Below, piece by piece: positions 1,012 to 19,439 of a DNA stretch of 19,439 bases (its first letter is position 1; every line of letters begins with the position of its first letter). Origin of the DNA: a virus. Lineage: Duplodnaviria; Heunggongvirae; Uroviricota; Caudoviricetes. The position numbers and the translations under genes were made by a program. The notes under the pieces are model-generated. The model was not told the DNA's origin. It did no database searches and worked only from the letters and a program-made list of their open reading frames with translations. Location: the IMG/VR virus record IMGVR_UViG_2925903241_000001, positions 1-19,439 of that record. The stretch is one strand, 5' to 3'.

Positions 1012-1050
1012 CTTGGTAGCAAATGGTGAAAATGTAATCTTTATATAGAG

Positions 1051-1344: not shown

Positions 1345-1465
1345 TTGACATGGTGCCTATATAGGGACTAAATCCCCTCAAAACTGGAACCTATATAGGT
1401 TCCATTGATTTGAGAATAAACCAGCATCTAAACGGTTTTGAGTGGTTTAGAAAGGGCTGGATCCT
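1345..1465. promoter_or_regulatory. Divergent early promoter/operator switch region between the repressor and cox
   Basis: 121-bp intergenic region between divergently oriented genes. Contains TTGACA at 1345-1350 abutting the repressor start codon, the palindrome CCTATATAGG at 1356-1365, and a perfect 18-bp palindrome GGAACCTATATAGGTTCC at 1387-1404. Exact -10/-35 assignment is not resolved by eye. Confidence 0.5.
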
Positions 1466-1480
1466 ATGAGGGTACCATAT

Positions 1481-1753
1481 ATGGACGCTGAAAATTATGT
1501 GATTCAGTATCCGCTTGATGCGGTTCATGTGGATAAATTTGCTGATTTATTAGGGAAGCCAAAGACAGCCGTCAGTGAAATGGTGAAGGCAAATAAATTA
1601 CCAATTATTGAATTGCGTGATCCTTGCAAACCGAAGGCTCGTGCCGGTGAAAAATGGGTTTTCATTCCTGAGTTTAATCGCGCTGTACGTGAGGCGTTTT
1701 ATAACCGACCGGTTGAACAGCGTGATGCATGGCTTTTGTGGATGGGGTTGTGA
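1481..1753 (+). CDS. cox: Cox-like excisionase / early regulator
   Basis: First rightward gene after the switch region. The ORF track starts at 1466, but the ATG at 1481 has a GAGGG Shine-Dalgarno about 9 nt upstream and gives 90 aa, close to P2 Cox. Product has the pattern ...GKLP.I...AG..WV..P.. ending ...WLLWMGL, similar to P2 Cox ...WLMWLGL from memory. Confidence 0.6.
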   Translation: MDAENYVIQYPLDAVHVDKFADLLGKPKTAVSEMVKANKLPIIELRDPCKPKARAGEKWVFIPEFNRAVREAFYNRPVEQRDAWLLWMGL

Positions 1754-1755
1754 TT

Positions 1756-1926
1756 ATGAATGAGCCGCGTTGTATTGCTCAGTTATTGCGTAACGAAAGC
1801 CCCAGGGCGATTGACTTCACCATCACCCACGGTAAGGGGCGTAAGGGAATCATTATCCGCACCAAAAAACAGAGTCCGTTAAAAAAGGCTCTGACCTTTC
1901 TGAAAAGCCGGAGGGTATGGAAATGA
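1756..1926 (+). CDS. Small hypothetical early protein (position of P2 orf78)
   Basis: ORF track gives 1729..1926; the ATG at 1756 (MNEPRCIAQLL...) avoids overlap with cox. Assignment is positional only. Confidence 0.35.
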   Translation: MNEPRCIAQLLRNESPRAIDFTITHGKGRKGIIIRTKKQSPLKKALTFLKSRRVWK

Positions 1927-2423
1927 CAGTGATGACGCTCAATCTCGTTGAAAAACAGCCAGCAGCTATGCGCCGGATAATTGGCAAGCATCTTGCCGTC
2001 CCTCGCTGGCAGGATACATGTGATTATTATAATCAGATGATGGAGCGCGAACGGCTAACGGTTTGCTTTCATGCACAGTTAAAACAGCGTCACGCAACGA
2101 TGCGTTTTGAAGAAATGAACGACGTCGAACGTGAACGACTGGTTTGTGCAATTGATGAATTGCGTGGCGCATTCTCAAAACGCCGTCAGGTCGGCGCAAG
2201 TGAGTATGCATATATTAGTTTTTTAACAGTCAGTCAGCGTCGTACTTTATTTATGCATGCGGGATTGACAGAAAAAGAATTCAATCAGCCGTACTGGCGA
2301 ATTAATGAAGAATCATGTTACTGGCGTGATGCTTTATTCCGTGCATTACGTGAATTATTCAGTCTGTTTGAGTATGCACCGACAATTCTGACGTCGGTAA
2401 AACCAGAGCAATATCTGCATTAA
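1917..2423 (+). CDS. P2 gpB-like early replication protein (tentative)
   Basis: 168-aa ORF at the position and size of P2 gene B (about 166 aa from memory) between cox and the small orf80-83-like genes. Based on synteny and size, not sequence recall. Confidence 0.5.
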   Translation: MEMTVMTLNLVEKQPAAMRRIIGKHLAVPRWQDTCDYYNQMMERERLTVCFHAQLKQRHATMRFEEMNDVERERLVCAIDELRGAFSKRRQVGASEYAYISFLTVSQRRTLFMHAGLTEKEFNQPYWRINEESCYWRDALFRALRELFSLFEYAPTILTSVKPEQYLH

Positions 2424-2486
2424 ATAATTAACCAGAGTTTTTAACGCACTTAATCGTGCGGGGCTTCTTTTTGCCTGGAGAAAGTC

Positions 2487-2711
2487 ATGCATACAGTTTC
2501 TGAAAATCAGTGCGGTAAATACGCATTACTGCTGCAACAGGCCAGAACCGAAGCACAGGCCGACGCTGCGACGCGCTTTTCTTCTCATCTTGACGCCATG
2601 ATTCGCCACATCACAAAGGCGGAGTTATCCCGCGTGGAGATAGTTGAGCTGCTCAGTCAGGAGTCGGAAAAATTTCACAATATCGGATTGTCTCGCGGGG
2701 AGGTGCTTTGA
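2487..2711 (+). CDS. Hypothetical early protein (P2 orf80 position)
   Basis: 74-aa ORF; its stop overlaps the next start (ATGA), indicating translational coupling within the early operon. Confidence 0.5.
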
Positions 2712-3013
2712 TGTCCTGTTCTCGTTCGGTTGTATTACTGAATAACGCCTTAAAAATCGCCGTTATGAAAAATGGTGATTTGTCTCTTATTCAACTTGGT
2801 ATTGATAAAGAGAAGCGCGAAATAACTGAATCTGTTATCGCGATTTATCAGAGTGAATTAAACCTCCTGTCTGATGTGGTCAATTTACTTGTTAAACGCG
2901 CTGTATTCCACAAGCAAATTTCCTCAGTGGATGAACTGACAAAATTAACGACAGAACTCGCCAGTTATTGCGCTGATGAATTTAAGAAGCTGAACGACAA
3001 AAGGAGCTGGTAA
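2708..3013 (+). CDS. Hypothetical early protein, AT-rich (P2 orf81 position)
   Basis: 101-aa ORF, visibly AT-richer than its neighbours. Tightly packed with the flanking genes (ATGA overlap upstream, the next start abuts its stop). Confidence 0.5.
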
Positions 3014-3237
3014 TGCCGGACAACGTGGATTTTATTCAGGAACAACAGGCTGAATTACTGGAGCGCCAGATTAACGCGGCAAGGGTAAAACATTGCGGTG
3101 TTTCTGCGCTGGTTTGCGAAGAGTGTGACGCGCCAATACCTGCTGCCCGTCGTGCGGCTTATCCGTCAGCCACGCGTTGTGTTTCCTGTCAGTCAGTCTT
3201 TGAAGCAAAAAACAAACATTACCGGAGAACGGCATGA
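3013..3237 (+). CDS. TraR/DksA-family C4 zinc-finger protein (P2 orf82-like)
   Basis: 74-aa product with CxxC...CxxC arrangement (C-E-E-C ... C-V-S-C) typical of phage TraR/DksA-like zinc fingers. Confidence 0.7.
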   Translation: MPDNVDFIQEQQAELLERQINAARVKHCGVSALVCEECDAPIPAARRAAYPSATRCVSCQSVFEAKNKHYRRTA

Positions 3238-3509
3238 GTATTCGTATTGAAATTGGCGAACGTTATGTCGTTACCAGTGACAGCTTTCAGTTTATTCTCC
3301 ACGAGAAAAAGAGAGCGGAAAGCGGTAAAAACGCCGGTCAGGAATGGCTGGCGGTGGTTGGTTATTACCCGAAATTAGGCCAGCTCGTTTCCGGCCTGAT
3401 GCATCACGATATTCTGACCGGAAGCGCAAAATCTTTTGCTGATTTAAACGCGCAGGTTGAGCAACTCAGCAAGCGTTGTTCAGAGGCTTTTGGCTCATAT
3501 GGCCGTTAA
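3234..3509 (+). CDS. Hypothetical early protein (P2 orf83 position)
   Basis: 91-aa ORF; its stop at 3507-3509 overlaps the A start codon at 3499. Confidence 0.55.
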   Translation: MSIRIEIGERYVVTSDSFQFILHEKKRAESGKNAGQEWLAVVGYYPKLGQLVSGLMHHDILTGSAKSFADLNAQVEQLSKRCSEAFGSYGR

Positions 3510-4869
3510 AGCCTCCGGGCGTTTTGTCCCTCCGTCAGCATTTACCGCAGGCACCGGTAAGGCGTTTACCGGTGCTTATGCATGGAACGCGCCACGCGAG
3601 GCTGTCGGGCGCGAAAGACCTCTTACACGTGACGAGATGCGTCAGGTGCAAGGTGTTTTATCCACGATTAACCGCCTGCCTTACTTTTTGCGCTCGCTGT
3701 TTACTTCACGCTATGACTACATCCGGCGCAATAAAAGCCCGGTGCACGGGTTTTATTTCCTCACATCTACTTTTCAGCGTCGTTTATGGCCGCGCATTGA
3801 GCGTGTGAATCAGCGCCATGAAATGAACACCGACGCGTCGTTGCTGTTTCTGGCAGAGCGTGACCACTATGCGCGCCTGCCGGGAATGAATGACAAGGAG
3901 CTGAAAAAGTTTGCCGCCCGTATCTCATCGCAGCTTTTCATGATGTATGAGGAACTCTGCGATGCATGGGTTGATGCGCATGGTGAAAAAGAATCGCTGT
4001 TTACGGATGAGGCGCAGGCTCACCTGTATGGTCATGTTGCTGGCGCTGCACGTGCTTTCAATATTTCCCCGCTCTACTGGAAAAAATACCGTAAAGGACA
4101 GATGACCACGAGGCAGGCATATTCTGCCATTGCCCGCCTGTTTAACGATGAGTGGTGGACTCATCAGCTTAAAGGCCAGCGTATGCGCTGGCATGAGGCG
4201 TTACTGATAGCTGTCGGGGAGGTCAATAAAGACCGTTCTCCTTATGCCAGTAAACACGCCATTCGTGATGTGCGTGCGCGCCGCCAGGCAAATCTGGAAT
4301 TTCTTAAATCGTGTGACCTTGAAAACAGGGAAACCGGCGAGCGCATCGACCTTATCAGTAAGGTGATGGGCAGTATTTCTAATCCTGAAATTCGCCGGAT
4401 GGAGCTGATGAACACCATTGCCGGTATTGAGCGTTACGCCGCCGCAGAGGGTGATGTGGGGATGTTTATCACGCTGACCGCGCCGTCAAAGTATCACCCG
4501 ACACGTCAGGTCGGAAAAGGCGAAAGTAAAACCGTTCAGCTTAATCACGGCTGGAACGATGAGGCATTTAATCCAAAGGATGCGCAGCGTTATCTCTGCC
4601 GTATCTGGAGCCTGATGCGCACGGCATTCAAGGATAATGATTTACAGGTCTACGGTTTGCGAGTCGTCGAGCCACACCACGACGGAACGCCGCACTGGCA
4701 TATGATGCTTTTTTGTCATCCACGCCAGCGTAACCAGATTATCGAAATCATGCGTCGCTATGCGCTCAAAGAGGATGGCGACGAAAGAGGTGCGTATTTT
4801 CATGAAAGGAGATCACTCAATAACTTCCATCGAGATCGGGTAATAACATTTGAACAGATCGCTGAATAA
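3499..4869 (+). pseudogene. A: Replication initiation endonuclease gpA (rolling-circle HUH nickase), 3' truncated by IS21-family insertion
   Basis: Likely start at MAVKASGRFVPP (3499), which is the P2 gpA N-terminus as I recall it. Phage-derived coding runs to about 4790 (roughly 431 codons, versus about 761 aa for P2 gpA). The final 25 codons of the ORF (...AYFHERRSLNNFHRDRVITFEQIAE) read into the IS terminal repeat. HUH motif PHWHMM is retained near aa 405-410. Confidence 0.85.
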
Positions 4870-4983
4870 CATCGATGGAGATCACTTTTGACTCATTTTG
4901 TTATTCAGTGATCTCCATCAATGTTATTGGAACTTCACAGGTGTGTTGATCTGTATCTTTTGCCATTCCGGTAAAGGATACCT

Positions 4984-6525
4984 ATGCCAACAGTTCCAAT
5001 TTCTATGAGAAAACTTAAAGAAATTCTTAGGCTTAAATACGGTGTTGGACTCAGCCATCGACAAATTGGTCGTAGTCTTGCAATCTCCCCTTCCGTTGTA
5101 TCCAGATATGCTAATCGGGCGGCTCAACTTGGCATAAAGCAGTGGCCCTTACCTACAGGATGGGATGATACAAAACTAAAACATGCGTTCCTTCAGACCC
5201 AGGTTAAGATGAAGAAGCACTCTCTGCCTGACTGGGCTACAGTACACCGGGAACTGCGTAATAAATGCGTGACGCTGCAGCTACTCTGGGAAGAATACTG
5301 TGAGCGTAATCCAGGCGGTTTTTACAGCTATAACCATTACTGCCGGATGTACCGTGAATGGCTCAAAACCACTTCACCATCAATGCGTCAGGTACATAAA
5401 GCTGGCGAAAAACTTTTCGTTGATTACTGTGGACCTACCGTTGGCGTTACCGACCCTGAGACCGGAGAAATAAGAACTGCTCAGGTCATCGTAGCTGTTC
5501 TCGGGGCATCAAGTTACACATGGGCAGAGGCCACCTGGTCTCAGCAGCTTGAAGACTGGGTGATGAGTCATGTTCGCTGCTTCCAGTGGTTGGGTGGCGT
5601 TCCTGAACTTGTTGTTCCGGACAATCTGAAAAGCGCCACATCCAGGGCATGTAAGTATGATCCTGACGTTAACCCTACCTACCAGCAGATGCTTGAGCAT
5701 TATAATGTCGCAGTTTTGCCTGCGCGGCCACGTAAACCGAAAGATAAAGCCAAAGCTGAAGTTGGCGTTCAGGTTGTTGAACGCTGGATCATGGCCCGAA
5801 TCAGGCATGAGATCTTCTACAGCCTTGCATCGCTTAATCAGCGCATTCGGGAGTTGCTGGAAAGACTGAATAACAAAATAATGCAGAAGTTGGGTTATTC
5901 ACGTGCAGAACTCTTCATCCAGCTTGATAAACCCGCACTGAAGCCTCTTCCTGAAGCCAGTTACAGTTACACCCTGGTGAAGAAAGTCAGAGTTCATGCC
6001 GATTACCACGTGGAAATCGACAAACATTACTACTCGGTTCCATGTTCGCTGTTAGGCCAGCAACTGGAAGCATGGATCTCCGGAGAACTGGTAAGACTCT
6101 TCAATCAGGGGCAGGAGGTTGCTGTGCACCCGCGCAAGCGTACTTATGGCTACAGTACCCGCAACGAGCACATGCCTGAAGCTCATCGACAGCATGCCAC
6201 CTGGACGCCAGAGCGTCTTCTGGAATGGGCGGGGCACATAGGCAGTGAAACTCATAGTTATGTGCTTCATATACTGAACTCTCGTCCACATCCGGAACAA
6301 AGCTATCGCTTCTGCCTTGGACTCCTGAACCTTCATAAAAAATACAGTAAAGCCAGACTTAATGCAGCATGTGCAAGAGCTCTGGAAACAAAGGTATGGC
6401 GTCTGTCAGGTATTAAATCGATCCTGGAAAAAGGTCTGGATAAACAACCTGTTCAGGATCCAAAACCAGATCTGTTATCCACGATGGAACACGAAAACGT
6501 ACGCGGCAGTGAGTATTACCACTGA
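4984..6525 (+). CDS. istA: IS21-family transposase IstA
   Basis: 513-aa ORF with N-terminal HTH-like region (LSHRQIGRSLAISPSVVSRYANRA) and a central integrase-type core, immediately followed by istB. Shine-Dalgarno AGGATA upstream. Confidence 0.9.
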   Translation: MPTVPISMRKLKEILRLKYGVGLSHRQIGRSLAISPSVVSRYANRAAQLGIKQWPLPTGWDDTKLKHAFLQTQVKMKKHSLPDWATVHRELRNKCVTLQLLWEEYCERNPGGFYSYNHYCRMYREWLKTTSPSMRQVHKAGEKLFVDYCGPTVGVTDPETGEIRTAQVIVAVLGASSYTWAEATWSQQLEDWVMSHVRCFQWLGGVPELVVPDNLKSATSRACKYDPDVNPTYQQMLEHYNVAVLPARPRKPKDKAKAEVGVQVVERWIMARIRHEIFYSLASLNQRIRELLERLNNKIMQKLGYSRAELFIQLDKPALKPLPEASYSYTLVKKVRVHADYHVEIDKHYYSVPCSLLGQQLEAWISGELVRLFNQGQEVAVHPRKRTYGYSTRNEHMPEAHRQHATWTPERLLEWAGHIGSETHSYVLHILNSRPHPEQSYRFCLGLLNLHKKYSKARLNAACARALETKVWRLSGIKSILEKGLDKQPVQDPKPDLLSTMEHENVRGSEYYH

Positions 6526-6536
6526 TACGGGATCCA

Positions 6537-7286
6537 ATGATGAATCATCTTTACGAACAACTGACCGCACTTAAACTCACCGGCTTCCGTGATGCGCTTA
6601 AAAAGCAACTTGCTCAACCGGGCACATACCAGGAGCTGGGCTTCGAAGAACGCCTGTCATTACTGACAGCAGAAGAACTAACCTGCCGTGAAAACAGGAA
6701 GGCAGAGCGTCTGATCAAACATGCACGGTTCAGACTTAATGCTGAGTTATCAAAGCTGGATTATCGTAACAATAGAGGGCTGGACAGGGCCCTCATCCGT
6801 TCACTCAGTCAGGGAAACTGGTTAACCCTGAAACAAAATATTTTACTGACCGGGGCCACCGGCAGCGGTAAAACGTTCCTGGCATGTGCACTTGGTCATA
6901 ATGCCTGCCGACAGGGATACAAGGTCTACTATTATCGCCTTAAAGCGCTGATGGAACAGTGCTATCAGGGGCATGCTGATGGAAGATACAGCAAACTTTT
7001 GACCAGGCTGAATAATAGCGATCTGCTGCTTCTGGATGACTGGGGGCTGGAACCTCTCTCATCAGAACAGCGTAGCGACCTGCTGGAAATAGTGGATCTG
7101 ATGTACCAACGAGGCTCAATCATCGTAGTGAGCCAGTTGCCGGTGGAAAACTGGTACAAAATGATCGGAGACTCCACACATGCGGATGCCATCCTAGATC
7201 GACTGGTTCATGGCAGTATCAAGATCGAACTTAAAGGAGAATCAATGCGGAAAATACAATCTCCGTTGACCGAAGGAGATCAGTGA
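6537..7286 (+). CDS. istB: IS21-family ATP-binding helper protein IstB
   Basis: 249-aa ORF with Walker A GATGSGKT and Walker B-like LLLLDDWG, 11 bp downstream of istA. Confidence 0.9.
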   Translation: MMNHLYEQLTALKLTGFRDALKKQLAQPGTYQELGFEERLSLLTAEELTCRENRKAERLIKHARFRLNAELSKLDYRNNRGLDRALIRSLSQGNWLTLKQNILLTGATGSGKTFLACALGHNACRQGYKVYYYRLKALMEQCYQGHADGRYSKLLTRLNNSDLLLLDDWGLEPLSSEQRSDLLEIVDLMYQRGSIIVVSQLPVENWYKMIGDSTHADAILDRLVHGSIKIELKGESMRKIQSPLTEGDQ

Positions 7287-7411
7287 AGGTAATTTAAAAA
7301 CGGTTCTGTGAAAGTGACACGAACCGATCTCCATCGATGTTACTCACCGATCTCCTTCACGGTAATACGCAAAGGCCACGGAACAGGCACACCAACGGGT
7401 AATACAGAGCC

Positions 7412-7437
7412 TTCTCCCAAACCAACGTTTATGAAAA
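7412..7437. other. Orphan gix/hix/pix-like invertase crossover site
   Basis: TTCTCCCAAACC-AA-CGTTTATGAAAA: a 26-bp imperfect palindrome (half-sites match 8/12 in inverse orientation) with central AA dinucleotide and AAACC..GGTTT-type core, resembling hixL and gix sites as I recall them. Lies 56 bp upstream of the invertase start, as in Gin/Hin systems. No partner site found in the window. Confidence 0.6.
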
Positions 7438-7517
7438 TGCAGAGATAACGGGCAAGTGGCATCATCTCCGGTTTTTATTCAGGGGGATGCTCATGCTTAT
7501 TGGCTATGTACGCGTGT

Positions 7518-7525
7518 CAACAAAT
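7518..7525. repeat. IS66 target-site duplication, left copy (CAACAAAT)
   Basis: 8-bp direct repeat immediately flanking the IS66-family left end; identical copy at 9981-9988. Confidence 0.9.
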
Positions 7526-7606
7526 GTAAGCGTCGTCTCAGCACCGTCTGGCAGATCCTGAAATTCCTGAGAGAATAGTGGACACCAAATATGGTGGACG
7601 CAATCC

Positions 7607-8011
7607 ATGAAATCATTAACCGCAGTGCGTAAAAAAAGCCCTAATTATCCCGTTGAGTTCAAAATCAAAATGGTTGAACTCTCGCATCGACCAGAGATCT
7701 CCGTAGCGCAACTCGCTCGTGAGCATGGGATCAACGATAATTTGCTGTTCAAGTGGCGCCAGTACTGGCGCGAAGGAAAACTACGTCCTCCTTCAACAAC
7801 AGAAAACAACGTGCCTGAGCTGCTCCCGATAACACTTGATGCCGAAGATGTTGTCCCTACAACCTCCCCCCGGTCACAACCTGTAGCTGCTGCGACACCT
7901 GAATCACTCAATATCAGCTGTGAAGTGACGTTCCGGCACGGATCACTCCGTCTGAATGGTGCCATCAGCGAAAATATCCTGAACCTGCTGATACGGGAGC
8001 TCAAACGTTGA
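7607..8011 (+). CDS. tnpA: IS66-family accessory protein TnpA (orfA)
   Basis: 134-aa ORF, first gene of the IS66 module; stop overlaps the tnpB start. Confidence 0.8.
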   Translation: MKSLTAVRKKSPNYPVEFKIKMVELSHRPEISVAQLAREHGINDNLLFKWRQYWREGKLRPPSTTENNVPELLPITLDAEDVVPTTSPRSQPVAAATPESLNISCEVTFRHGSLRLNGAISENILNLLIRELKR

Positions 8012-8355
8012 TCCCATTACCATCAGGGACAAAGATCTGGCTGGTCGCTGGCATCACCGATATGAGAAACGGCTTCAACGGCCTGGCGGCAAAGGTGCAG
8101 ACGACGCTGAAAGACGATCCGATGTCAGGTCACGTTTTTATCTTCCGTGGGCGTAATGGCAGTCAGGTAAAGCTCCTCTGGTCTACCGGCGATGGACTGT
8201 GTCTGCTGACCAAACGGCTGGAGCGCGGCCGCTTCGCCTGGCCGTCAGCCCGGGATGGCAAAGTGTTCCTCACACCGGCACAGCTGGCGATGCTGCTGGA
8301 AGGTATCGACTGGCGGCAGCCTAAAAGACTGCTTACGTCCCTGACTATGTTGTAA
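8008..8355 (+). CDS. tnpB: IS66-family accessory protein TnpB (orfB)
   Basis: 115-aa ORF MIPLPSGTKIWLVAGITDMR..., the conserved IS66 orfB-type protein by recall. Confidence 0.85.
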   Translation: MIPLPSGTKIWLVAGITDMRNGFNGLAAKVQTTLKDDPMSGHVFIFRGRNGSQVKLLWSTGDGLCLLTKRLERGRFAWPSARDGKVFLTPAQLAMLLEGIDWRQPKRLLTSLTML

Positions 8356-8403
8356 GCCTCTTTATCCTGGTCGACGCTGAATGAGCCTGGTAATATACCC
8401 GGT

Positions 8404-9939
8404 ATGAGCAGCTCACTTCCTGACGATATCAATGCACTGAAACGTCTCCTTGCCGAACAGGAGGCGCTGAACCGTGCCCTGCAGGAAAAGCTGAACGAGC
8501 GTGAACGCGAAATAGACCATCTGCAGGCACAGCTGGATAAGCTGCGCCGGATGAACTTCGGCAGCCGCTCGGAAAAAGTCTCCCGTCGTATCGCACAGAT
8601 GGAAGCTGACCTGAAGGCACTTCAGAAAGAAAGTGATACCCTTACCGGTCGGGTTGACGACCCGGCCGTGCAGCGCCCGCTGCGTCAAACCCGCACCCGC
8701 AAACCGTTCCCCGAATCACTCCCCCGCGATGAAAAACGGCTGCTGCCGGCAGCGTCATGCTGCCCGGAATGTGGAGGCTCGCTGAGCTATCTGGGTGAGG
8801 ATGCCGCCGAACAGCTGGAGCTGATGCGCAGCGCCTTCCGGGTTATCCGGACTGTACGTGAAAAGCATGCCTGTACTCAGTGCGATGCCATCGTGCAGGC
8901 CCCCGCGCCTTCACGGCCCATCGAGCGGGGTATCGCAGGACCGGGGCTGCTGGCCCGCGTGCTGATCTCAAAGTATGCAGAGCACACCCCGCTGTACCGC
9001 CAGTCTGAAATGTACGGCCGCCAGGGCGTGGAGCTGAGTCGTTCACTGCTGTCGGGCTGGGTGGATGCATGCTGCCGGCTACTGTCACCGCTGGAAGAAG
9101 CGCTTCAGGACTATGTGCTGACTGACGGTAAGCTCCATGCTGATGACACGCCTGTCCCGGTGCTGTTGCCAGGCAATAAGAAAACGAAGACCGGGCGGTT
9201 ATGGACCTACGTTCGTGACGACCGTAACGCCGGGTCAACGCTGGCGCCGGCGGTGTGGTTCGCTTACAGCCCGGACAGAAAAGGCATCCATCCGCAGACC
9301 CATCTTGCGGGGTTCAGTGGTGTACTGCAGGCGGATGCATACGCCGGGTTCAACGAGCTGTACCGGGATGGCCGGATAACGGAAGCCGCCTGTTGGGCTC
9401 ACGCCCGCCGTAAAATCCACGATGTGCACGTTCGCACCCCGTCAGCCCTGACGGAGGAAGCGCTGAAACGGATCGGCGAACTGTACGCCATCGAGGCAGA
9501 GATAAGGGGAATGACGGCGGAGCAGCGCCTTGCCGAACGTCAGTTGAAAACGAAACCGCTGCTGAAATCCCTGGAAAGCTGGCTGCGTGAAAAGATGAAA
9601 ACCCTGTCGCGACACTCAGAACTGGCGAAAGCGTTCGCATACGCCCTGAACCAGTGGCCGGCGCTGACGTACTATGCAGATGATGGCTGGGCTGAGGCGG
9701 ACAATAACATCGCTGAAAATGCGTTGCGGATGGTCAGTCTGGGCCGCAAAAACTACCTGTTCTTCGGTTCGGATCATGGAGGAGAGCGGGGAGCGCTGCT
9801 GTACAGCCTGATCGGGACGTGCAAACTGAACGGAGTGGAGCCAGAAAGCTACCTCCGCTATGTCCTTGACGTCATAGCCGACTGGCCGATAAACCGGGTC
9901 GGCGAACTGCTCCCCCTGGCGCGTAGCACTGCCGACTGA
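8404..9939 (+). CDS. tnpC: IS66-family transposase TnpC
   Basis: 511-aa ORF with N-terminal leucine-zipper/coiled-coil, a CxxC...CxxC zinc-finger region (CPECGG ... CTQCD) and a C-terminal DDE-type region, typical of IS66 transposases. Confidence 0.9.
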
Positions 9940-9980
9940 ATAACACATCCCCGTCAATACGGTTCTTGCTGCACGCTTAC

Positions 9981-9988
9981 CAACAAAT
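9981..9988. repeat. IS66 target-site duplication, right copy (CAACAAAT)
   Basis: Identical to 7518-7525; immediately follows the IS66 right terminus. Confidence 0.9.
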
Positions 9989-10608
9989 GACCAGAACACG
10001 GAATTGCAGCGTAACGCGCTGGAGTGCGCAGGATGTGAGCTGATTTTTGAGGATAAAATCAGCGGCACGAAGTCCGACAGGCCGGGGCTGAAAAAACTGC
10101 TCAGAACATTATCGGAAGGTGACACTCTGGTAGTCTGGAAGCTGGACCGGCTGGGGCGTAGTATGCGGCATCTGGTCATTCTGGTTGAGGAGCTGCGCGA
10201 ACGCGGCATTAATTTTCGCAGCCTGACGGATGCCATTGATACCAGCACGCCGATGGGGCGTTTTTTCTTTCATGTGATGGGTGCCCTGGCTGAAATGGAG
10301 CGAGAACTCATTGTCGAGCGGACACGCGCCGGACTGGAGGCGGCCAGAGCCAAAGGTCGTATTGGTGGCAGACGTCCGAAACTCACCGCGAGTGAGTGGG
10401 AGCAGGCCGGGCGGTTGCTGGCTGCAGGGGAATCACGTCAACGCGTGGCACTGATTTTTGATATTGGCCTGTCCACGCTCTATAAAAAATTCCCCGCCTC
10501 AGTGACAAAAAATAAATTGTGTCATCCCTTAGCCAACCGGGACAAATAGCCTGACATCTCCGGCACAACTAAAAATATCACTCACCCATTAACCACGGAG
10601 TTAAACGG

Positions 10609-11799
10609 ATGAGTGACTATCATCACGGCGTGCAGGTGCTGGAGATTAACGACGGCACCCGCGTCATTTCCACCGTATCCACTGCCATTGTCGGCATGGT
10701 CTGCACGGCCAGCGATGCGGATGCGGAAACCTTCCCCCTCAATAAACCGGTGCTGATTACCAATGTGCAGAGCGCAATTGCAAAGGCTGGTAAAAAAGGC
10801 ACGCTGGCGGCGTCGTTACAGGCCATCGCCGACCAGTCAAAACCGGTCACCGTTGTCGTGCGTGTGGAAGACGGCACCGGTGACGACGAGGAAACGAAAC
10901 TCGCGCAGACCGTTTCCAATATCATCGGCACCACCGACGAAAACGGTCAGTACACCGGACTGAAAGCCCTGCTGGCGGCGGAGTCGGTAACCGGTGTTAA
11001 GCCGCGCATTCTCGGTGTGCCGGGACTGGACACCAAAGAGGTTGCCGTCGCACTGGCATCAGTCTGTCAGAAGCTGCGCGCTTTCGGGTATATCAGCGCA
11101 TGGGGCTGTAAAACCATTTCCGAGGTGAAAGCCTACCGCCAGAATTTCAGCCAGCGTGAGCTGATGGTCATCTGGCCGGATTTCCTCGCATGGGATACGG
11201 TCACCAGTACCACCGCCACCGCGTATGCCACCGCCCGTGCGCTGGGTCTGCGCGCTAAAATCGACCAGGAGCAGGGCTGGCATAAAACACTGTCCAACGT
11301 TGGGGTGAACGGTGTTACCGGCATCAGCGCATCTGTATTCTGGGATTTGCAGGAGTCCGGCACCGATGCTGACCTGCTGAATGAGTCAGGCGTCACAACG
11401 CTGATTCGCCGTGACGGTTTCCGCTTCTGGGGTAACCGTACCTGCTCTGATGACCCGCTGTTCCTCTTTGAAAACTACACCCGCACCGCGCAGGTGCTGG
11501 CCGACACGATGGCTGAGGCGCACATGTGGGCGGTGGACAAGCCCATCACCGCAACGCTGATTCGCGACATCGTTGATGGCATCAATGCCAAATTCCGAGA
11601 GCTGAAAACAAACGGCTATATCGTGGATGGCACATGCTGGTTCAGCGAAGAATCCAACGATGCGGAAACCCTCAAGGCCGGAAAACTGTATATCGACTAC
11701 GACTATACACCGGTGCCTCCTCTCGAAAACCTGACCCTGCGCCAGCGTATTACCGATAAATACCTGGCAAATCTGGTCACCTCGGTTAACAGCAATTAA
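10609..11799 (+). CDS. FI: Contractile tail sheath protein gpFI
   Basis: 396-aa ORF beginning MSDYHHGVQVLEINDGTRVISTVSTAIVGMV..., matching P2 FI in length and in sequence as far as I can recall. GGAG Shine-Dalgarno upstream. Confidence 0.93.
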   Translation: MSDYHHGVQVLEINDGTRVISTVSTAIVGMVCTASDADAETFPLNKPVLITNVQSAIAKAGKKGTLAASLQAIADQSKPVTVVVRVEDGTGDDEETKLAQTVSNIIGTTDENGQYTGLKALLAAESVTGVKPRILGVPGLDTKEVAVALASVCQKLRAFGYISAWGCKTISEVKAYRQNFSQRELMVIWPDFLAWDTVTSTTATAYATARALGLRAKIDQEQGWHKTLSNVGVNGVTGISASVFWDLQESGTDADLLNESGVTTLIRRDGFRFWGNRTCSDDPLFLFENYTRTAQVLADTMAEAHMWAVDKPITATLIRDIVDGINAKFRELKTNGYIVDGTCWFSEESNDAETLKAGKLYIDYDYTPVPPLENLTLRQRITDKYLANLVTSVNSN

Positions 11800-11811
11800 G
11801 GAGCCTGACCG

Positions 11812-12330
11812 ATGGCAATGCCGCGCAAACTCAAGTTAATGAACGTCTTTCTGAACGGCTACAGCTATCAGGGCGTTGCAAAGTCCGTCACGCTGCCAAA
11901 ACTGACCCGTAAGCTCGAAAACTATCGCGGTGCGGGAATGAACGGCAGCGCACCGGTAGACCTCGGCCTTGATGACGATGCGCTGTCAATGGAGTGGTCG
12001 CTCGGGGGCTTCCCGGATTCGGTTATCTGGGAGCTTTACGCCGCAACCGGTGTGGATGCTGTGCCGATTCGTTTTGCAGGCTCTTACCAGCGTGACGATA
12101 CCGGCGAAACGGTGGCCGTCGAGGTGGTCATGCGTGGACGTCAGAAAGAAATCGACACCGGCGAGGGTAAACAGGGAGAAGACACTGAGTCGAAAATCTC
12201 CGTGGTCTGCACCTATTTCCGGCTGACGATGGACGGTAAGGAGCTGGTCGAAATCGACACCATCAACATGATTGAGAAGGTGAACGGCGTCGACCGGCTG
12301 GAGCAACACCGCCGCAATATCGGCCTGTGA
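11812..12330 (+). CDS. FII: Tail tube protein gpFII
   Basis: 172-aa ORF immediately after FI; same length as P2 FII (from memory) and in the conserved order. Confidence 0.9.
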   Translation: MAMPRKLKLMNVFLNGYSYQGVAKSVTLPKLTRKLENYRGAGMNGSAPVDLGLDDDALSMEWSLGGFPDSVIWELYAATGVDAVPIRFAGSYQRDDTGETVAVEVVMRGRQKEIDTGEGKQGEDTESKISVVCTYFRLTMDGKELVEIDTINMIEKVNGVDRLEQHRRNIGL

Positions 12331-12386
12331 TTTTCATCCGGTCAGCCTGGCTGACCGGTTAACCCCGATTCATAAGTGAGAAAACC

Positions 12387-12662
12387 ATGAACAAAGAAAA
12401 TGTGATTACCCTGGACAATCCGGTCAAACGTGGTGAGCAGGTTATCGAACAGGTCACGCTGATGAAACCCAGTGCCGGGACGCTGCGCGGTGTCAGTCTG
12501 GCAGCGGTCGCAAACTCCGAAGTCGATGCACTGATTAAGGTGTTGCCGCGCATGACGGCACCGATGCTGACCGAGCAGGAAGTCGCCGCACTGGAACTGC
12601 CTGACCTTGTGGCGCTGGCCGGTAAGGTGGTCGGTTTTTTGTCGCCGAACTCGGTGCAGTGA
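12387..12662 (+). CDS. E: Tail assembly chaperone gpE
   Basis: 91-aa ORF between FII and T, same length as P2 E; contains the slippery heptamer T-TTT-TTG near its 3' end. Confidence 0.88.
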   Translation: MNKENVITLDNPVKRGEQVIEQVTLMKPSAGTLRGVSLAAVANSEVDALIKVLPRMTAPMLTEQEVAALELPDLVALAGKVVGFLSPNSVQ

Positions 12663-12814
12663 CGTTTCCGAAAAATCTCTCGGTCGATGACCTGATGGCG
12701 GATGTGGCAGTGATATTTCACTGGCCGCCATCAGAACTGTATCCCATGAGCCTGACCGAACTCATCACATGGCGCGAAAAGGCGCTCCGGCGAAGCGGAA
12801 ACACGAATGAGTAA
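12387..12814 (+). CDS. Tail assembly chaperone gpE+E' produced by programmed -1 frameshift
   Basis: Slippery site T TTT TTG at 12635-12641 in the E frame. The -1 frame from 12641 is open to TAA at 12812-14 and encodes VAELGAVTFPKNLSVDDLMADVAVIFHWPPSELYPMSLTELITWREKALRRSGNTNE. Fusion is 85 + 57 = 142 aa, equal to the P2 E+E' size as I recall. Stop overlaps the T start. Confidence 0.8.
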
Positions 12815-15254
12815 CAATGTAAAATTACAGGTATTGCTCAGGGCTGTTGACCAGGCATCCCGTCCGTTTAAATCCATCCGCACAGCGAGCAAATCGCTGT
12901 CGGGGGATATCCGGGAAACACAAAAATCACTGCGCGAGCTGAACGGTCAGGCATCCCGTATTGAGGGATTTCGCAAGACCAGTGCACAGCTCGCCGTGAC
13001 TGGTCATGCACTTGAAAAGGCACGGCAGGAGGCCGAAGCCCTTGCCACACAGTTTAAAAACACCGAACGTCCGACACGTGCTCAGGCGAAAGTGCTGGAA
13101 TCCGCGAAGCGTGCGGCGGAGGACTTACAGGCGAAATATAACCGCCTGACGGATTCCGTTAAACGCCAGCAGCGGGAACTGGCCGCTGTGGGAATTAATA
13201 CCCGCAATCTTGCACATGATGAGCAGGGACTGAAAAACCGTATCAGTGAAACCACCGCACAGCTTAACCGTCAGCGTGATGCGCTGGCGCGTGTCAGTGC
13301 GCAACAGGCAAAACTTAACGCAGTCAAACAGCGTTATCAGGCCGGAAAGGAACTGGCCGGAAATATAGCCTCAGTGGGCGCTGCCGGTGTGGGGATTGCG
13401 GCGGCGGGAACGATGGCCGGAGTTAAGCTGCTGATGCCCGGTTATGAGTTTGAGCAGAAAAACTCAGAATTGCAGGCCGTGCTCGGAGTGGCAAAAGACT
13501 CCGCCGAAATGACCGCACTCCGCAAGCAGGCGCGCCAGCTTGGCGACAACACCGCCGCCTCGGCGGATGATGCAGCCGGTGCGCAGATTATCATTGCGAA
13601 AGCCGGCGGGGATGTTGATGCCATTCAGGCGGCAACGCCGGTCACGCTGAATATGGCGCTGGCGAACCGTCGCACGATGGAAGAAAACGCCGCCCTGTTG
13701 ATGGGGATGAAATCCGCCTTTCAGCTTTCAAACGATAAGGTCGCTCATATCGGGGATGTTCTCTCCATGACGATGAACAAAACCGCCGCCGATTTTGACG
13801 GCATGAGCGATGCGCTGACCTATGCCGCACCTGTGGCAAAAAATGCCGGTGTCAGCATTGAAGAAACCGCCGCAATGGTCGGGGCACTGCATGATGCAAA
13901 AATTACCGGTTCAATGGCGGGGACGGGAAGCCGTGCCGTGTTAAGCCGCCTGCAGGCACCGACGGGAAAAGCATGGGATGCACTGAAAGAGCTTGGTGTG
14001 AAAACCTCAGACAGCAAGGGAAACACCCGACCAGTATTTACCATTCTGAAAGAAATGCAGGCCAGTTTTGAGAAAAACCGGCTCGGTACTGCCCAGCAGG
14101 CTGAATACATGAAAACTATTTTCGGGGAGGAGGCCAGCTCAGCCGCCGCCGTGCTGATGACTGCCGCCTCAACCGGAAAGCTGGACAAACTGACCGCTGC
14201 GTTTAAAGCCTCAGACGGGAAGACCGCCGAGCTGGTAAATATCATGCAGGACAACCTCGGCGGTGACTTTAAGGAGTTTCAGTCTGCTTATGAGGCGGTG
14301 GGGACTGACCTGTTTGACCAGCAGGAAGGCGCACTGCGTAATCTCACGCAGACGGCCACAAAGTATGTGTTAAAACTCGACGGCTGGATCAAGAAAAACA
14401 AATCACTGGCGTCAACCATCGGCCTCATTGTCGGTGGCGCACTGGCGCTTACTGGCATCATCGGTGCCATTGGTCTTGTCGCCTGGCCGGTTATCACCGG
14501 CATCAATGCCATCATCGCGGCAGCAGGCGCAATGGGGGCAGTCTTCACGACGGTTGGCAGTGCTGTTATGACCGCCATCGGGGCTATTAGCTGGCCGGTT
14601 GTGGCCGTGGTGGCCGCAATTGTCGCCGGGGCGTTGCTTATCCGTAAATACTGGGAGCCTGTCAGCGCATTCTTTGGCGGTGTGGTTGAAGGGCTGAAAG
14701 TGGCATTTGCGCCGGTGGGGGAACTGTTCACGCCACTTAAGCCGGTGTTTGACTGGCTGGGTGAAAAGTTACAGGCCGCGTGGCAGTGGTTTAAAAACCT
14801 GATTGCCCCGGTCAAAGCCACTCAGGACACCCTGAACCGTTGCCGTGACACGGGGGTCATGTTCGGGCAGGCACTGGCTGACGCGCTGATGCTGCCGCTT
14901 AATGCGTTCAACAAACTGCGCAGTGGTATTGACTGGGTACTGGAAAAACTCGGTGTTATCAACAAAGAGTCAGACACACTTGACCAGACCGCCGCCAGAA
15001 CTCAAGCCGCCACGTATGGCCGCGGTGGTTATATTCCGGCGACCAGCTCTTATGCAGGTTATCAGGCTTATCAGCCGGTCACGGCACCGGCTGGCCGCTC
15101 TTATGTAGACCAGAGTAAAAACGAATATCACATCAGCCTGACGGGTGGTACTGCGCCGGGGACACAGCTCGACCGCCAGTTACAGGATGCGCTCGAAAAA
15201 TACGAGCGGGATAAACGTGCGCGCGCCCGTGCCAGCATGATGCATGACGGTTAA
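12807..15254 (+). CDS. T: Tail tape measure protein gpT
   Basis: 815-aa ORF (P2 T is 815 aa from memory) with coiled-coil N-terminal region and hydrophobic Gly/Ala-rich segments typical of tape measure proteins; directly follows E/E'. Confidence 0.93.
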   Translation: MSNNVKLQVLLRAVDQASRPFKSIRTASKSLSGDIRETQKSLRELNGQASRIEGFRKTSAQLAVTGHALEKARQEAEALATQFKNTERPTRAQAKVLESAKRAAEDLQAKYNRLTDSVKRQQRELAAVGINTRNLAHDEQGLKNRISETTAQLNRQRDALARVSAQQAKLNAVKQRYQAGKELAGNIASVGAAGVGIAAAGTMAGVKLLMPGYEFEQKNSELQAVLGVAKDSAEMTALRKQARQLGDNTAASADDAAGAQIIIAKAGGDVDAIQAATPVTLNMALANRRTMEENAALLMGMKSAFQLSNDKVAHIGDVLSMTMNKTAADFDGMSDALTYAAPVAKNAGVSIEETAAMVGALHDAKITGSMAGTGSRAVLSRLQAPTGKAWDALKELGVKTSDSKGNTRPVFTILKEMQASFEKNRLGTAQQAEYMKTIFGEEASSAAAVLMTAASTGKLDKLTAAFKASDGKTAELVNIMQDNLGGDFKEFQSAYEAVGTDLFDQQEGALRNLTQTATKYVLKLDGWIKKNKSLASTIGLIVGGALALTGIIGAIGLVAWPVITGINAIIAAAGAMGAVFTTVGSAVMTAIGAISWPVVAVVAAIVAGALLIRKYWEPVSAFFGGVVEGLKVAFAPVGELFTPLKPVFDWLGEKLQAAWQWFKNLIAPVKATQDTLNRCRDTGVMFGQALADALMLPLNAFNKLRSGIDWVLEKLGVINKESDTLDQTAARTQAATYGRGGYIPATSSYAGYQAYQPVTAPAGRSYVDQSKNEYHISLTGGTAPGTQLDRQLQDALEKYERDKRARARASMMHDG

Positions 15255-15268
15255 GGAGGTGACGAAAA

Positions 15269-15748
15269 ATGATGCTCGCGTTAGGTATGTTTGTTTTTAT
15301 GCGCCAGACGCTGCCACACCAGACCATGCAGCGTGAATCAGATTATCGCTGGCCGTCAAATTCCCGTATCGGTAAACGGGACGCTTTTCAGTTTCTCGGT
15401 GTGGGTGAGGAAAACATCACGCTTGCCGGTGTGCTTTATCCCGAACTGACCGGCGGCAAGCTGACGATGACCACGCTCAGGCTGATGGCAGAGGAGGGGC
15501 GGGCGTGGCCGTTGCTGGATGGCACCGGCATGATTTACGGCATGTATGTCATCAGCAAGGTGAGTGAAACAGGGAGTATTTTCTTTGCAGACGGCACACC
15601 CCGGAAAATTGATTTTACGCTGTCGCTCACCCGCGTTGATGAATCACTGGCCGCGCTTTATGGCGATATCGGTAAACAGGCGGAATCGCTCATCGGTAAG
15701 GCTGGCAGTATGGCGACTAAATTCACGGGTATGACGGGGGCGGGATAA
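15269..15748 (+). CDS. U: Tail protein gpU
   Basis: 159-aa ORF after T, same size and position as P2 U; GGAGG Shine-Dalgarno upstream. Confidence 0.9.
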   Translation: MMLALGMFVFMRQTLPHQTMQRESDYRWPSNSRIGKRDAFQFLGVGEENITLAGVLYPELTGGKLTMTTLRLMAEEGRAWPLLDGTGMIYGMYVISKVSETGSIFFADGTPRKIDFTLSLTRVDESLAALYGDIGKQAESLIGKAGSMATKFTGMTGAG

Positions 15749-16911
15749 TGCTGGATGCACTGACATTTGATGCAGGCAGTACGCTGACGCCGGATTACAT
15801 GCTGATGCTCGACAGCAGGGATATTACCGGCAATATCAGCGACCGTCTGATGAGCATGACCCTGACGGATAACCGGGGCTTTGAGGCTGACCAGCTTGAT
15901 ATTGAACTGAACGATGCCGACGGGCAGGTCGGACTACCGATTCGTGGCGCTGTCCTGACGGTGTATATCGGCTGGAAAGGTTTTGCCCTGGTATGCAAAG
16001 GGAAATTTACCGTTGATGAGGTTGAACACCGGGGCGCACCGGATGTGGTCACCATCCGCGCCCGGAGTGCAGATTTTCGCGGGACGCTCAATTCCCGCCG
16101 TGAAGGCTCATGGCATGACACCACGCTCGGTGCGATTGTTGAGGCGATAGCCTCCCGTAACAGGCTGGAAGCCAGTGTCGCTCCGTCACTGGCCGGAATT
16201 AAAATCCCGCACATCGACCAGTCGCAGGAGTCTGATGCGAAATTTCTGACCCGTCTTGCAGAACGCAACGGCGGTGAGGTGTCGGTAAAAATGGGAAAAC
16301 TGCTGTTTCTCAAAGCGGGGCAGGGGGTGACGGCCAGCGGTAAAAAAATCCCGCAGGTCACCATCACCCGCAGCGACGGTGACCGCCATCATTTTGCGAT
16401 TGCTGACCGTGGAGCCTACACCGGCGTAACGGCAAAGTGGTTACACACCAAAGACCCGAAGCCGCAAAAGCAGAAGGTAAAACTGAAACGCAAAAAGAAA
16501 GAGAAACACCTGCGCGCACTGGAGCACCCGAAAGCGAAACCGGTCACGCAGAAGAAAGCGCCAAAAGTACCGGAAGCGCGCGAAGGTGAATACATGGCAG
16601 GTGAGGCTGACAATGTTTTTGCCCTGACTACGGTATATGCCACGAAAGCGCAGGCCATGCGCGCCGCTCAGGCGAAGTGGGATAAACTGCAACGGGGCGT
16701 TGCGGAGTTCTCCATCAGCCTGGCTACCGGTCGGGCTGATATTTACACGGAAACACCGGTTAAAGTGTCAGGCTTTAAGCGCGTCATAGACGAGCAGGAC
16801 TGGACAATCACTAAGGTGACACATTTTCTGAATAATAGCGGCTTCACGACGTCCTTAGAGCTTGAGGTCAGGCTTTCTGATGTGGAGTACGAAACAGAAG
16901 ATGATGAGTGA
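15748..16911 (+). CDS. D: Tail protein gpD (late control D family)
   Basis: 387-aa ORF overlapping the U stop (ATAATG), same length as P2 D; includes a Lys-rich low-complexity segment (KPQKQKVKLKRKKKEK). Confidence 0.9.
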   Translation: MLDALTFDAGSTLTPDYMLMLDSRDITGNISDRLMSMTLTDNRGFEADQLDIELNDADGQVGLPIRGAVLTVYIGWKGFALVCKGKFTVDEVEHRGAPDVVTIRARSADFRGTLNSRREGSWHDTTLGAIVEAIASRNRLEASVAPSLAGIKIPHIDQSQESDAKFLTRLAERNGGEVSVKMGKLLFLKAGQGVTASGKKIPQVTITRSDGDRHHFAIADRGAYTGVTAKWLHTKDPKPQKQKVKLKRKKKEKHLRALEHPKAKPVTQKKAPKVPEAREGEYMAGEADNVFALTTVYATKAQAMRAAQAKWDKLQRGVAEFSISLATGRADIYTETPVKVSGFKRVIDEQDWTITKVTHFLNNSGFTTSLELEVRLSDVEYETEDDE

Positions 16912-16992
16912 TGTTTTTATTTTATCTGTTTGTTTTATAAGGATAAATTAACTAAAATGGCACCATCAACAAAACCGGAAGAGGTGCTCGCG

Positions 16993-17211
16993 ATGTTTCA
17001 TTGTCCTTTATGCCAGCATGCCGCACATGCGCGTACAAGTCGCTATATTACTGACACGACAAAAGAGCGTTATCACCAGTGTCAGAACGTGAATTGCAGC
17101 GCCACGTTCATCACTTATGAGTCGGTACAGCGATACATCGTGAAACCGGGAGAAGTCCACGCCGTAAGGCCGCACCCGTTGCCGTCAGGGCAGCAAATTA
17201 TGTGGATGTAA
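16993..17211 (+). CDS. ogr: Late transcription activator Ogr (zinc-finger)
   Basis: 72 aa from the internal ATG at 16993: MFHCPLCQHAAHARTSRYITDTTKERYHQCQNVNCSATFITYES..., with the CxxC-N22-CxxxxC zinc-binding pattern and the P2 Ogr length. The ORF track's 93-aa version from 16930 is a likely over-extension. Shine-Dalgarno GAAGAGG upstream of 16993. Confidence 0.9.
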   Translation: MFHCPLCQHAAHARTSRYITDTTKERYHQCQNVNCSATFITYESVQRYIVKPGEVHAVRPHPLPSGQQIMWM

Positions 17212-17220
17212 TTACAAACA

Positions 17221-17236
17221 GAAAGCCCCTCAGTCG
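17221..17236 (+). terminator. ogr rho-independent terminator, split by IS150 (left arm here; right arm and T-tract at 18683-18698)
   Basis: Removing IS150 and one TCG copy reconstitutes GAAAGCCCCTC-AGTC-GAGGGGCTTTC followed by TGTTTTGG: an 11-bp perfect stem, 4-nt loop and T-rich tail, immediately 3' of ogr. Confidence 0.75.
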
Positions 17237-18653: not shown

Positions 18654-18797
18654 CTGTCCAACTTTTTGGGGTCAGTACATCGAGGGGCTTTCTGTTTTGG
18701 GGAATATTCTTCATTAAAAGTAGTGGATCACGTTTAATAAACTATGTTTATCATATACTTAAAAGTCAATCTTTAAAGTTGGACAGGTTGGTGGAAA

Positions 18798-19439
18798 ATG
18801 GAAAAAGTTATAATTGAGCTTGATAATCGTTGGGAGTTAGCTGATTTCGCGGTCTTAACGAAAGAGTATTTGCAGCTATATGGTTTTTTTTATGGCCTAA
18901 AAGGAGGATCAAGAGGATATTCAACAATGCCTTGGGAGGGTGGGCACAGTGTGGTGAACTTTTTTAGAGGGGCTTACAGTGCGACTCCACCAGATTTACG
19001 TCCTGTAGTGAAAAAAATTCAGTATGCCTCTCCTGGCTTTATTGAATTGTCTGCTCTTATTGATATCTCTTGGCAGATTGCTGAGTTAGTTACTGCTGTT
19101 GGTGGAAGTATTCTGGCTGCCAACAAAGTTTACGATCAGGTGATGCGTACATATCGACAAAGAGAATGGGCAAAGTTGAAATCAGAGAAGCTGCGTATAC
19201 AGAATCAAATTAAAGAGATTGAACTTGTTTCTGACGCAGTTAAATCACTTGAATCTGTGATGGCACTTAGTGAAGAACAACGTAAAAACTTGGTTCAACT
19301 ATCGGGGGCAGATGAACTGGTTCAGTTAAAGATACTTTTGGCTGTTTACCGACGGTTATCTCCTCTTGTTGAGTTGCAAAACAGCGGGAAAGCTAATTTT
19401 TCTGCTGGGAAAAATAAAAATTTAAAAGCGTCCGATTAA
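18798..19439 (+). CDS. Hypothetical protein (unassigned), complete, in AT-rich DNA
   Basis: 213-aa ORF with ATG at 18798, GGTGG Shine-Dalgarno-like sequence upstream and TAA at 19437-19439. Base composition is clearly AT-richer than the phage block. C-terminal half is predicted helical/coiled-coil (KLKSEKLRIQNQIKEIELVSDAVKSLESVMALSEEQRKNL). No family recognised by eye. Confidence 0.55.
   Translation: MEKVIIELDNRWELADFAVLTKEYLQLYGFFYGLKGGSRGYSTMPWEGGHSVVNFFRGAYSATPPDLRPVVKKIQYASPGFIELSALIDISWQIAELVTAVGGSILAANKVYDQVMRTYRQREWAKLKSEKLRIQNQIKEIELVSDAVKSLESVMALSEEQRKNLVQLSGADELVQLKILLAVYRRLSPLVELQNSGKANFSAGKNKNLKASD

Follow-up and report, generated by a model that had tools for sequence, protein, structure and literature searches.

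The window (the whole stretch of DNA analysed here, 19,439 nt in length) derives from a P2-like prophage and closes with the late-gene activator gene ogr, a copy of IS150, and an AT-rich segment that holds one complete ORF, referred to below as the cargo ORF. Coordinates are collected in Table 1. The initial annotation had called a complete 213-aa ORF in this segment, and the ORF is real: it starts with ATG, carries the motif GGTGG 3 bases 5' of the start, ends with a stop codon that is the final triplet of the window, and has identical coordinates in RefSeq, where it is entered as a hypothetical protein. The sharp drop in base composition described there holds up too, with a GC content of 0.521 in the prophage (positions 1-17236), 0.441 in IS150, 0.331 in the 118-nt leader, and 0.399 in the ORF; GC3 is 0.32 in the cargo ORF versus 0.61 in gpD. 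The hairpin that straddles the cargo stop codon lacks a T-run on the + strand and scores as a terminator on the - strand. Scanning the region 5' of the ORF for sigma-70 consensus sites gave no convincing site, the leader shows no conservation with the leader of the related Kosakonia gene (see below), and a search for cis RNA antitoxins and repeats at the cargo gene returned no Rfam family at the gathering score and no tandem repeat. We found no mention of WP_000416606 in the literature.

Table 1. Features between ogr and the end of the window (window coordinates)
Feature	Position	Strand	Remarks
ogr, late-gene activator (annotated OgrK)	16993..17211	+	normally the final gene before attR in P2-like prophages
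ogr intrinsic terminator, left hairpin half	17220..17236	+	ends in the TCG target-site copy 17234-17236
IS150, 1443 bp, in the ogr terminator loop	17237..18679	+	terminal inverted repeats TGTACTG..., 3-bp TCG duplication
ogr terminator, right half: second TCG copy, 3' stem, T-run	18680..18699	+	from hairpin reconstruction
AT-rich 5' leader of the cargo gene, GC 0.33	18683..18797	+	Shine-Dalgarno-like GGTGG at 18790-18794
Cargo ORF, 213 aa (WP_000416606.1)	18798..19439	+	short stand-alone PD-T4-10B C-terminal module, from PADLOC match and homologues
Hairpin GCGTCCG-ATTAAA-CGGACGC across the cargo stop codon	left arm 19428..19439	+	right arm past the window end

The position at which the initial annotation let the AT-rich segment begin, 18680, is exactly the first base after IS150, which is annotated as a transposase with a programmed frameshift. 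Removal of IS150 in silico restores AGAAAGCCCCTC-AGTC-GAGGGGCTTTCT followed by a T-run, with a fold dG of -29.7, and places the insertion point in the 4-nt loop of the ogr terminator hairpin (target-site duplication TCG). The cargo ATG follows the ogr terminator by only 118 nt. Because the insertion falls in the terminator loop, IS150 has not truncated the cargo ORF; truncation is likewise ruled out by the intact target-site duplication and by the same gene in 86 complete E. coli genomes in which the junction from ogr terminator to ORF is uninterrupted. This uninterrupted junction is missing in about 75 of the 161 carriers described below, and those sampled hold the IS150 insertion. An IS150 copy in the terminator loop could have changed read-through, or supplied an outward promoter, toward the cargo gene.

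The borders of the prophage lie elsewhere than the initial annotation had supposed. Comparison of AR435 (loci L001 and L003), K-12 (L002), and non-carriers (L017-L019) places the P2-like prophage between cpxP and fieF, flanked by a duplicated att core of about 47 bp, GACACCATCCCTGTCTTCCCCCACATG(C/A)TGTGGGGGTTTTTTTTATC (L001 12868-12914; L003 4388-4434; K-12 L002 1847-1893), which consists of the 3' part of the CpxQ sRNA (its last ~42 nt) together with the cpxP terminator. At attL the core now terminates the host cpxP/CpxQ transcript, and in this copy the loop of the hairpin has a C-to-A change. The stop codon of the cargo ORF is about 80 bp from the attR core, on its phage side, and between the two lie Int arm-type repeats, CGATGTGGACGCTATGTGGACAG (paired TGTGGAC), with a like pair beside int at attL; we take this pair to match TGTGGACA, the arm-type consensus of P2 integrase. 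The right hairpin arm, the CGATGTGGACGCTATGTGGACAG repeats, and the attR core are found 1-130 bp past the window end. The segment had been described as lying beyond the prophage end, with a prophage/host junction or horizontally acquired cargo as the options. A junction at 18680 is ruled out, the true attR core (3' end of cpxP/CpxQ) being located just past the window end, and the placement beyond the prophage fails with it, given the duplicated core and the arm repeats between ORF and attR. The cargo option stands: carriers differ from otherwise near-identical non-carrier prophages at the same site by a clean insertion of about 775 bp between the ogr terminator and the arm repeats, and for this reason the AT-rich segment is phage cargo inside the prophage borders. 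The next + strand terminator 3' of the cargo ORF is the CpxQ hairpin in attR; the ORF has no + strand T-run terminator of its own, and the cargo transcript would probably end at this hairpin and thereby acquire a CpxQ-like 3' end.

The prophage that carries the gene is itself defective. The window corresponds to AR435 positions 226549-233924 joined to 252472-264539, that is, to an 18.5-kb deletion relative to AR435 whose junction (7372-7375; context 4795-7465) is flush with the right end of ISEc12, an IS21-family element in gpA, and which takes what remains of gpA, the DEAD/DEAH helicase of hotspot 1, and every head, lysis, baseplate, and tail-fibre gene; because of this deletion we regard the prophage as defective. 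The exact junction is common to 18 complete genomes, including ST167-type strains, and the cargo gene is intact (≥99% identity) despite its IS-riddled and deleted surroundings. At the fun/Z hotspot position the window holds an IS66-family element (7466-10549; tnpA 7607-8011, tnpB, and an ISEc22 transposase at 8404-9939), flanked by a truncated tail-fibre-segment ORF (7372-7465, - strand) and an invertase-like “recombinase family protein” (9947-10549), an arrangement resembling what is left of an invertible tail-fibre switch for host range. In the AR435 prophage, hotspot 1 (the gpA/portal gap; L003 13153-15636) encodes an 827-aa protein of the DEAD/DEAH-box helicase family, a candidate defence gene that the window has lost by deletion.

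We find the cargo gene in 161 of 5,426 complete E. coli genomes, 158 of them at ≥99% identity, and every copy is chromosomal; in every carrier locus examined it lies inside a prophage at the cpxP-fieF site. Such a distribution, away from any conserved host locus, sets aside the core-genome gene that the initial annotation had named as the finding that would overturn its reading. The same integrase occurs in 789 E. coli genomes, so that about 20% of prophages of this att type carry the cargo and about 80% are without it. In P2-like prophages lacking the ORF, sampled at the pflB, yegQ, and fieF sites, no gene separates ogr from att and the adjoining host gene (8/8), and we reject the notion that the ogr-att gap is a general hotspot, the slot being empty in all eight. 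In a prophage of Kosakonia arachidis the order is the same (gpD, ogr, ORF, arm repeats, and an identical core), with identities of 77% for gpD, 87% for Ogr, and 77% (amino acid) for the cargo ORF. On an IMG/VR contig (L080), gpU and gpD stand directly 5' of the ORF (72% amino acid identity), with which the contig ends; a match to ogr was not detected on it. Between the E. coli and Kosakonia cargo genes pN/pS is 0.122/0.762 = 0.16, and the corresponding value for gpD is 0.107/0.648 = 0.165. These comparisons argue that the cargo gene has long belonged to this phage lineage, under selection. A tblastn search of the cargo protein against 50,697 deposited phage genomes gave no match.

Pfam, PHROGs, and NCBIfam contain nothing that matches the cargo protein significantly, and no housekeeping identity, the other outcome that had been named as fatal to the initial reading, was found. 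The remark that the protein has no motif that can be placed is thus correct for these three collections and incorrect for PADLOC, whose PD-T4-10_B models match it with high significance (PDLC04024, E=1.3e-34; PDLC04025, 7e-23; PDLC04026, 3e-19). The alignment joins cargo residues 3-201 to profile positions 139-346 of 353 only, i.e., to the C-terminal ~210 residues of toxin B, and pairwise identity to one full-length (long-form) B is 31% over 204 residues. Residues conserved across family members of both lengths include W12, Y28, P45-W46-x-G48-G49-x-S51, Y76-A-S78-P79-G80, K178, and R185-R186. A word-indexed search retrieved 118 close homologues, nearly all of 203-235 aa, and a full HMMER profile search extended the family to 791 clusters (at 50% identity), of which 589 have E ≤1e-10; hundreds of homologues have the same length and the same start (MEKVIIELD.../...LDxRW), also across genera.

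Two forms of the protein make up the family. The majority are short (~200-260 aa) with no N-terminal extension, and the others are long (~320-380 aa) with an N-terminal extension of 125-165 aa, in a ratio of about 5:1 (202 vs. 38 sequences collected). The extension matches the N-terminal half of DUF6575 (PF20215), and long forms fit the PADLOC model end to end; two relatives have a TRADD-like N domain in place of the DUF6575-like extension, and one of the two also matches EAD1 weakly. The gene for the antitoxin, PD-T4-10A, stands immediately 5' in all five long-form loci, three of them confirmed by PDLC04023 (E 1.6e-43 to 3e-3) and the other two resting on position and on an A-family HMM constructed in this analysis, and upstream of the short form in none of about 60 loci. 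When HMMs for A and for the N-extension were run on six-frame translations, they found no match in the window, in the whole 38-kb prophage with its flanks, or in the ~60 short-form loci. The scan for family loci used alignment A1, the mixed short-and-long alignment A2 being too divergent. Clustering of all neighbouring ORFs within 2.5 kb of 48 loci gave no family that recurs in more than three loci. Because A co-occurs strictly with the N-extension, the antitoxin may act through that extension.

At one locus (L086) a large ORF (1761-3107, - strand) with a DUF6575-N-like domain (E=1.3e-6 with the N-extension HMM) lies 1.3 kb from a short-form gene, beside an integrase, and the N-extension domain may work as a separate protein near solo modules. 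A distantly P2-like contig (L091, IMGVR_UViG_3300015261_000166; gpD 41%, gpU 41%) carries a canonical pair of A and long-form B at 4234-5615; two-gene and solo forms therefore both travel on P2-type phages.

Short forms occur in a range of genomic contexts. One lies in a Pseudomonas prophage beside PDC-S21/DUF4917 and an S24 repressor, others in an Enterobacter locus with an Ogr remnant and in Vibrio contexts resembling cassette arrays, and 16 IMG/VR contigs hold short forms, in six of them as the last gene at the contig edge. In two of the Vibrio loci (L009, 3025-3654; L010, 145-774) the same short-form protein (P0018) is embedded among small, unrelated genes on the same strand, as is typical of chromosomal integron cassettes, which would mean that the short form can be mobilised as a one-gene unit. 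The initial annotation had proposed inspecting the neighbourhood for an attachment core and for a defence island. The core was located as described above. Defence context proved suggestive and not decisive: among 130 neighbour ORFs from 33 homologue loci we find scattered AbiEii, AbiU, PifA, GajA, HmaC, PD-Lambda-4_A, SoFic, and several PDC candidates, and likewise many ordinary metabolic and housekeeping genes.

The AF2 model of the cargo protein, built from a 40-sequence alignment (pLDDT 84.9, pTM 0.60), is built in three parts, an alpha/beta subdomain at the N-terminus (strands 2-8, 70-75, and 80-86; helices 14-36, 49-61, and 88-103), a helix of about 50 residues (105-154), and two further helices (159-169 and 173-195), in keeping with the helical C-terminal half that had been predicted from the sequence. 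The structure comparison recommended along with that prediction gave no confident relative: Foldseek returned no significant match (best PDB E=1.5, best BFVD E=0.29), and the family profile found nothing below E=0.15 among PDB sequences.

PD-T4-10 was described in E. coli ECOR65 as a toxin-antitoxin-like abortive infection system of two overlapping ORFs, in which the toxicity of B is neutralised by A and resistance to T-even phages, through abortive infection, depends on B; the system was given no biochemical function, and DUF6575 is among the new defence domains listed (Vassallo et al. 2022, Nat Microbiol; PMC9519451). This is the only paper in the searchable literature in which we find DUF6575, and we found no experimental work there on any short form. 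The cargo protein resembles toxin B in its ~31% identity to the C-terminal ~210 residues and in sharing the same motifs, and both are carried on mobile elements, including P2-like phages (L091). It differs in having no PD-T4-10A gene and none of the N-terminal ~135-aa DUF6575-like region of B, in consisting of one gene of 213 aa as opposed to overlapping ORFs of ~148 and 353 aa, and in a more hydrophobic central helix. The cargo locus is thus not a PD-T4-10 system proper, failing on two defining features, the A gene and full-length B.

On balance, we think it probable that the cargo gene encodes a stand-alone, prophage-borne anti-phage effector of the PD-T4-10B family. It would be a “moron” of a temperate P2-like lineage that integrates at the 3' end of cpxP/CpxQ, upstream of fieF, occupying an unusual position, with the ogr terminator on one side and the attP arm sites for integrase on the other. 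In a lysogen the effector would stay inactive, because the antitoxin is absent and yet the gene persists stably, which would suggest auto-inhibition or very low expression. An infecting phage would then trigger the effector, leading to arrest or death of the cell or to a block of the infection. The active protein is probably oligomeric, built on its long helices, and the Ser/Gly-rich conserved loops (PWxGGxS and YASPG), together with K178, R185, and R186, may form an active or ligand-binding surface. An effector module fits this picture because relatives fuse it behind DUF6575-like or TRADD-N adaptor-type domains, and the C-module is more likely the effector than a scaffold, since it is the sole part present in most members and is the part placed behind the adaptors.

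Several lines of evidence lead us to favour defence. The PADLOC match (E=1.3e-34), the 31% identity to a long B, and the motifs common to both forms tie the protein to a toxin that is neutralised by A and needed for T4 resistance. The gene is a ~775-bp insertion/deletion polymorphism within a prophage, its layout is shared with the Kosakonia prophage and contig L080, it evolves under a pN/pS of 0.16, and it has stayed intact in a defective prophage. Homologues recur in prophages, at prophage edges, in Vibrio cassette arrays, and beside PDC-S21/DUF4917, AbiEii, AbiU, PifA, GajA, and PD-Lambda-4. Other observations weigh against it. Neither this locus nor the surroundings of any short form examined contain the A antitoxin or the N-terminal region of B; with no promoter found 5' and a strong terminator (plus, here, IS150) separating the gene from ogr, expression in the lysogen is only putative; 50,697 phage genomes hold no match, and no structural relative hints at an activity; many homologues neighbour housekeeping genes, and the searchable literature offers no short-form experiment. 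The guess of a defence or abortive-infection gene in the initial annotation accordingly gains from the homology to the PD-T4-10 toxin and loses from the absence of the antitoxin and of the N-terminal region of B.

The strongest competing account, which we consider rather unlikely, has the gene as an accessory or passenger outside defence: a helical scaffold or binding protein that serves lysogenic conversion or modulates integration/excision or the cpxP/CpxQ-fieF locus, or a gene with no current function. The gene directly abuts the Int arm sites and the CpxQ terminator, has no detected promoter, partner gene, recognisable catalytic motif, or structural relative, and has homologues many of which adjoin housekeeping genes, all of which such an account would accommodate. 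It sits poorly with the strong purifying selection, with the clear homology to a validated toxin, and with the recurrence of the gene in prophages, cassette arrays, and defence-gene neighbourhoods; moreover, since about 80% of the prophages with the same integrase and att site are without the gene, it is not needed for integration.

A particular version of the defence reading, which we judge unlikely, is that the protein is a membrane-active abortive-infection or superinfection-exclusion protein whose helix 86-108 inserts into the inner membrane and depolarises the cell. This helix is far more hydrophobic in the antitoxin-less short forms than in the A-partnered long forms (mean KD 1.35 vs. 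0.26; charged residues 2.6 vs. 4.8; Mann-Whitney p=5e-17, a contrast uncorrected for phylogeny, which tempers it), and 31 of 202 short forms contain an uncharged, transmembrane-like 19-mer. In the cargo protein, however, the helix (KD 1.40) contains D89 and E96, has no uncharged 19-mer, and is amphipathic (muH 0.28); in the model it probably packs on the beta-sheet of the ferredoxin-like subdomain, and the protein has neither a signal peptide nor a second transmembrane segment.

We hold it improbable that the cargo protein is an anti-defence decoy, a solo module that co-assembles with PD-T4-10B-type proteins of the host as a dominant negative, or counters them otherwise, and so aids phage infection. 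A phage-borne, shortened homologue of a defence toxin, with long helices suited to hetero-oligomerisation, is what a decoy could look like, and the contig with canonical A and long B indicates that both forms circulate in the same phage group. Short forms nevertheless outnumber long ones about 5:1 and are widespread outside phages, for example in Vibrio cassettes and on chromosomes; their identity to long forms is only ~30%; and the gene is retained in a defective prophage no longer able to infect. Decay of a two-gene PD-T4-10 locus to a 5'-truncated B, with A and the N-terminus lost, possibly via IS150, would explain the match limited to positions 139-346 of the 353-position model and the adjoining IS element, and is essentially refuted by the position of IS150 in the ogr terminator loop with its target duplication intact, by the 86 genomes that have the same gene without IS150, by the hundreds of homologues of the same length and start across genera, by purifying selection, and by a six-frame HMM search that found no traces of A or N-terminal pseudogenes upstream.

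The anti-phage effector reading can be set beside the known cargo of P2 prophages, for which two hotspots have been described, one between A and Q, with old/tin, and one at fun/Z (Rousset et al. 2022; Vassallo et al. 2022). Like that cargo, the gene is an AT-rich, variably present insertion in a conserved P2-like genome, persists in lysogens, and has homology to a defence protein; unlike it, the gene occupies a third position, between ogr and attP, at which one type of cargo is seen. Because the slot is empty in the eight other P2-like prophages sampled and only this one cargo has been seen in it, we describe the insertion as a single polymorphism tied to one integrase/att lineage and not as a demonstrated hotspot for diverse cargo. 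In the TRADD-N and effector-associated-domain conflict systems (Kaur, Burroughs, Iyer, and Aravind 2021, eLife), adaptor domains and NTPase partners are found that the cargo protein does not have, and its structural similarity lies below any significance threshold, which makes these systems a lead and not a class to which it belongs.

A broader proposal, which we advance tentatively and think possible but doubtful, is that the short, partner-less form is the main and perhaps the ancestral state of PD-T4-10B, a widespread, self-contained, auto-inhibited single-protein immune effector with a fold unlike solved structures. Being auto-inhibited, such a protein would need no antitoxin; the need for A would have arisen when the DUF6575-like N-domain was added, making the two-gene PD-T4-10 system derived, and P2-like phages would have a third cargo slot, hitherto overlooked, in the ogr-attP gap.

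Rule-based defence finders require both PD-T4-10 genes and so leave unannotated the cargo gene, which about 3% of complete E. coli genomes carry (ST167-type clinical lineages among them), together with hundreds of related solo genes. The link between A and the N-extension (5/5 loci vs. 0 of ~60) predicts which part of PD-T4-10B the antitoxin controls, and the 213-aa cargo protein offers a minimal version for mechanistic study of PD-T4-10. For the phages themselves, the locus indicates that P2-like genomes can hold cargo in the gap between ogr and attP, outside the two hotspots described.
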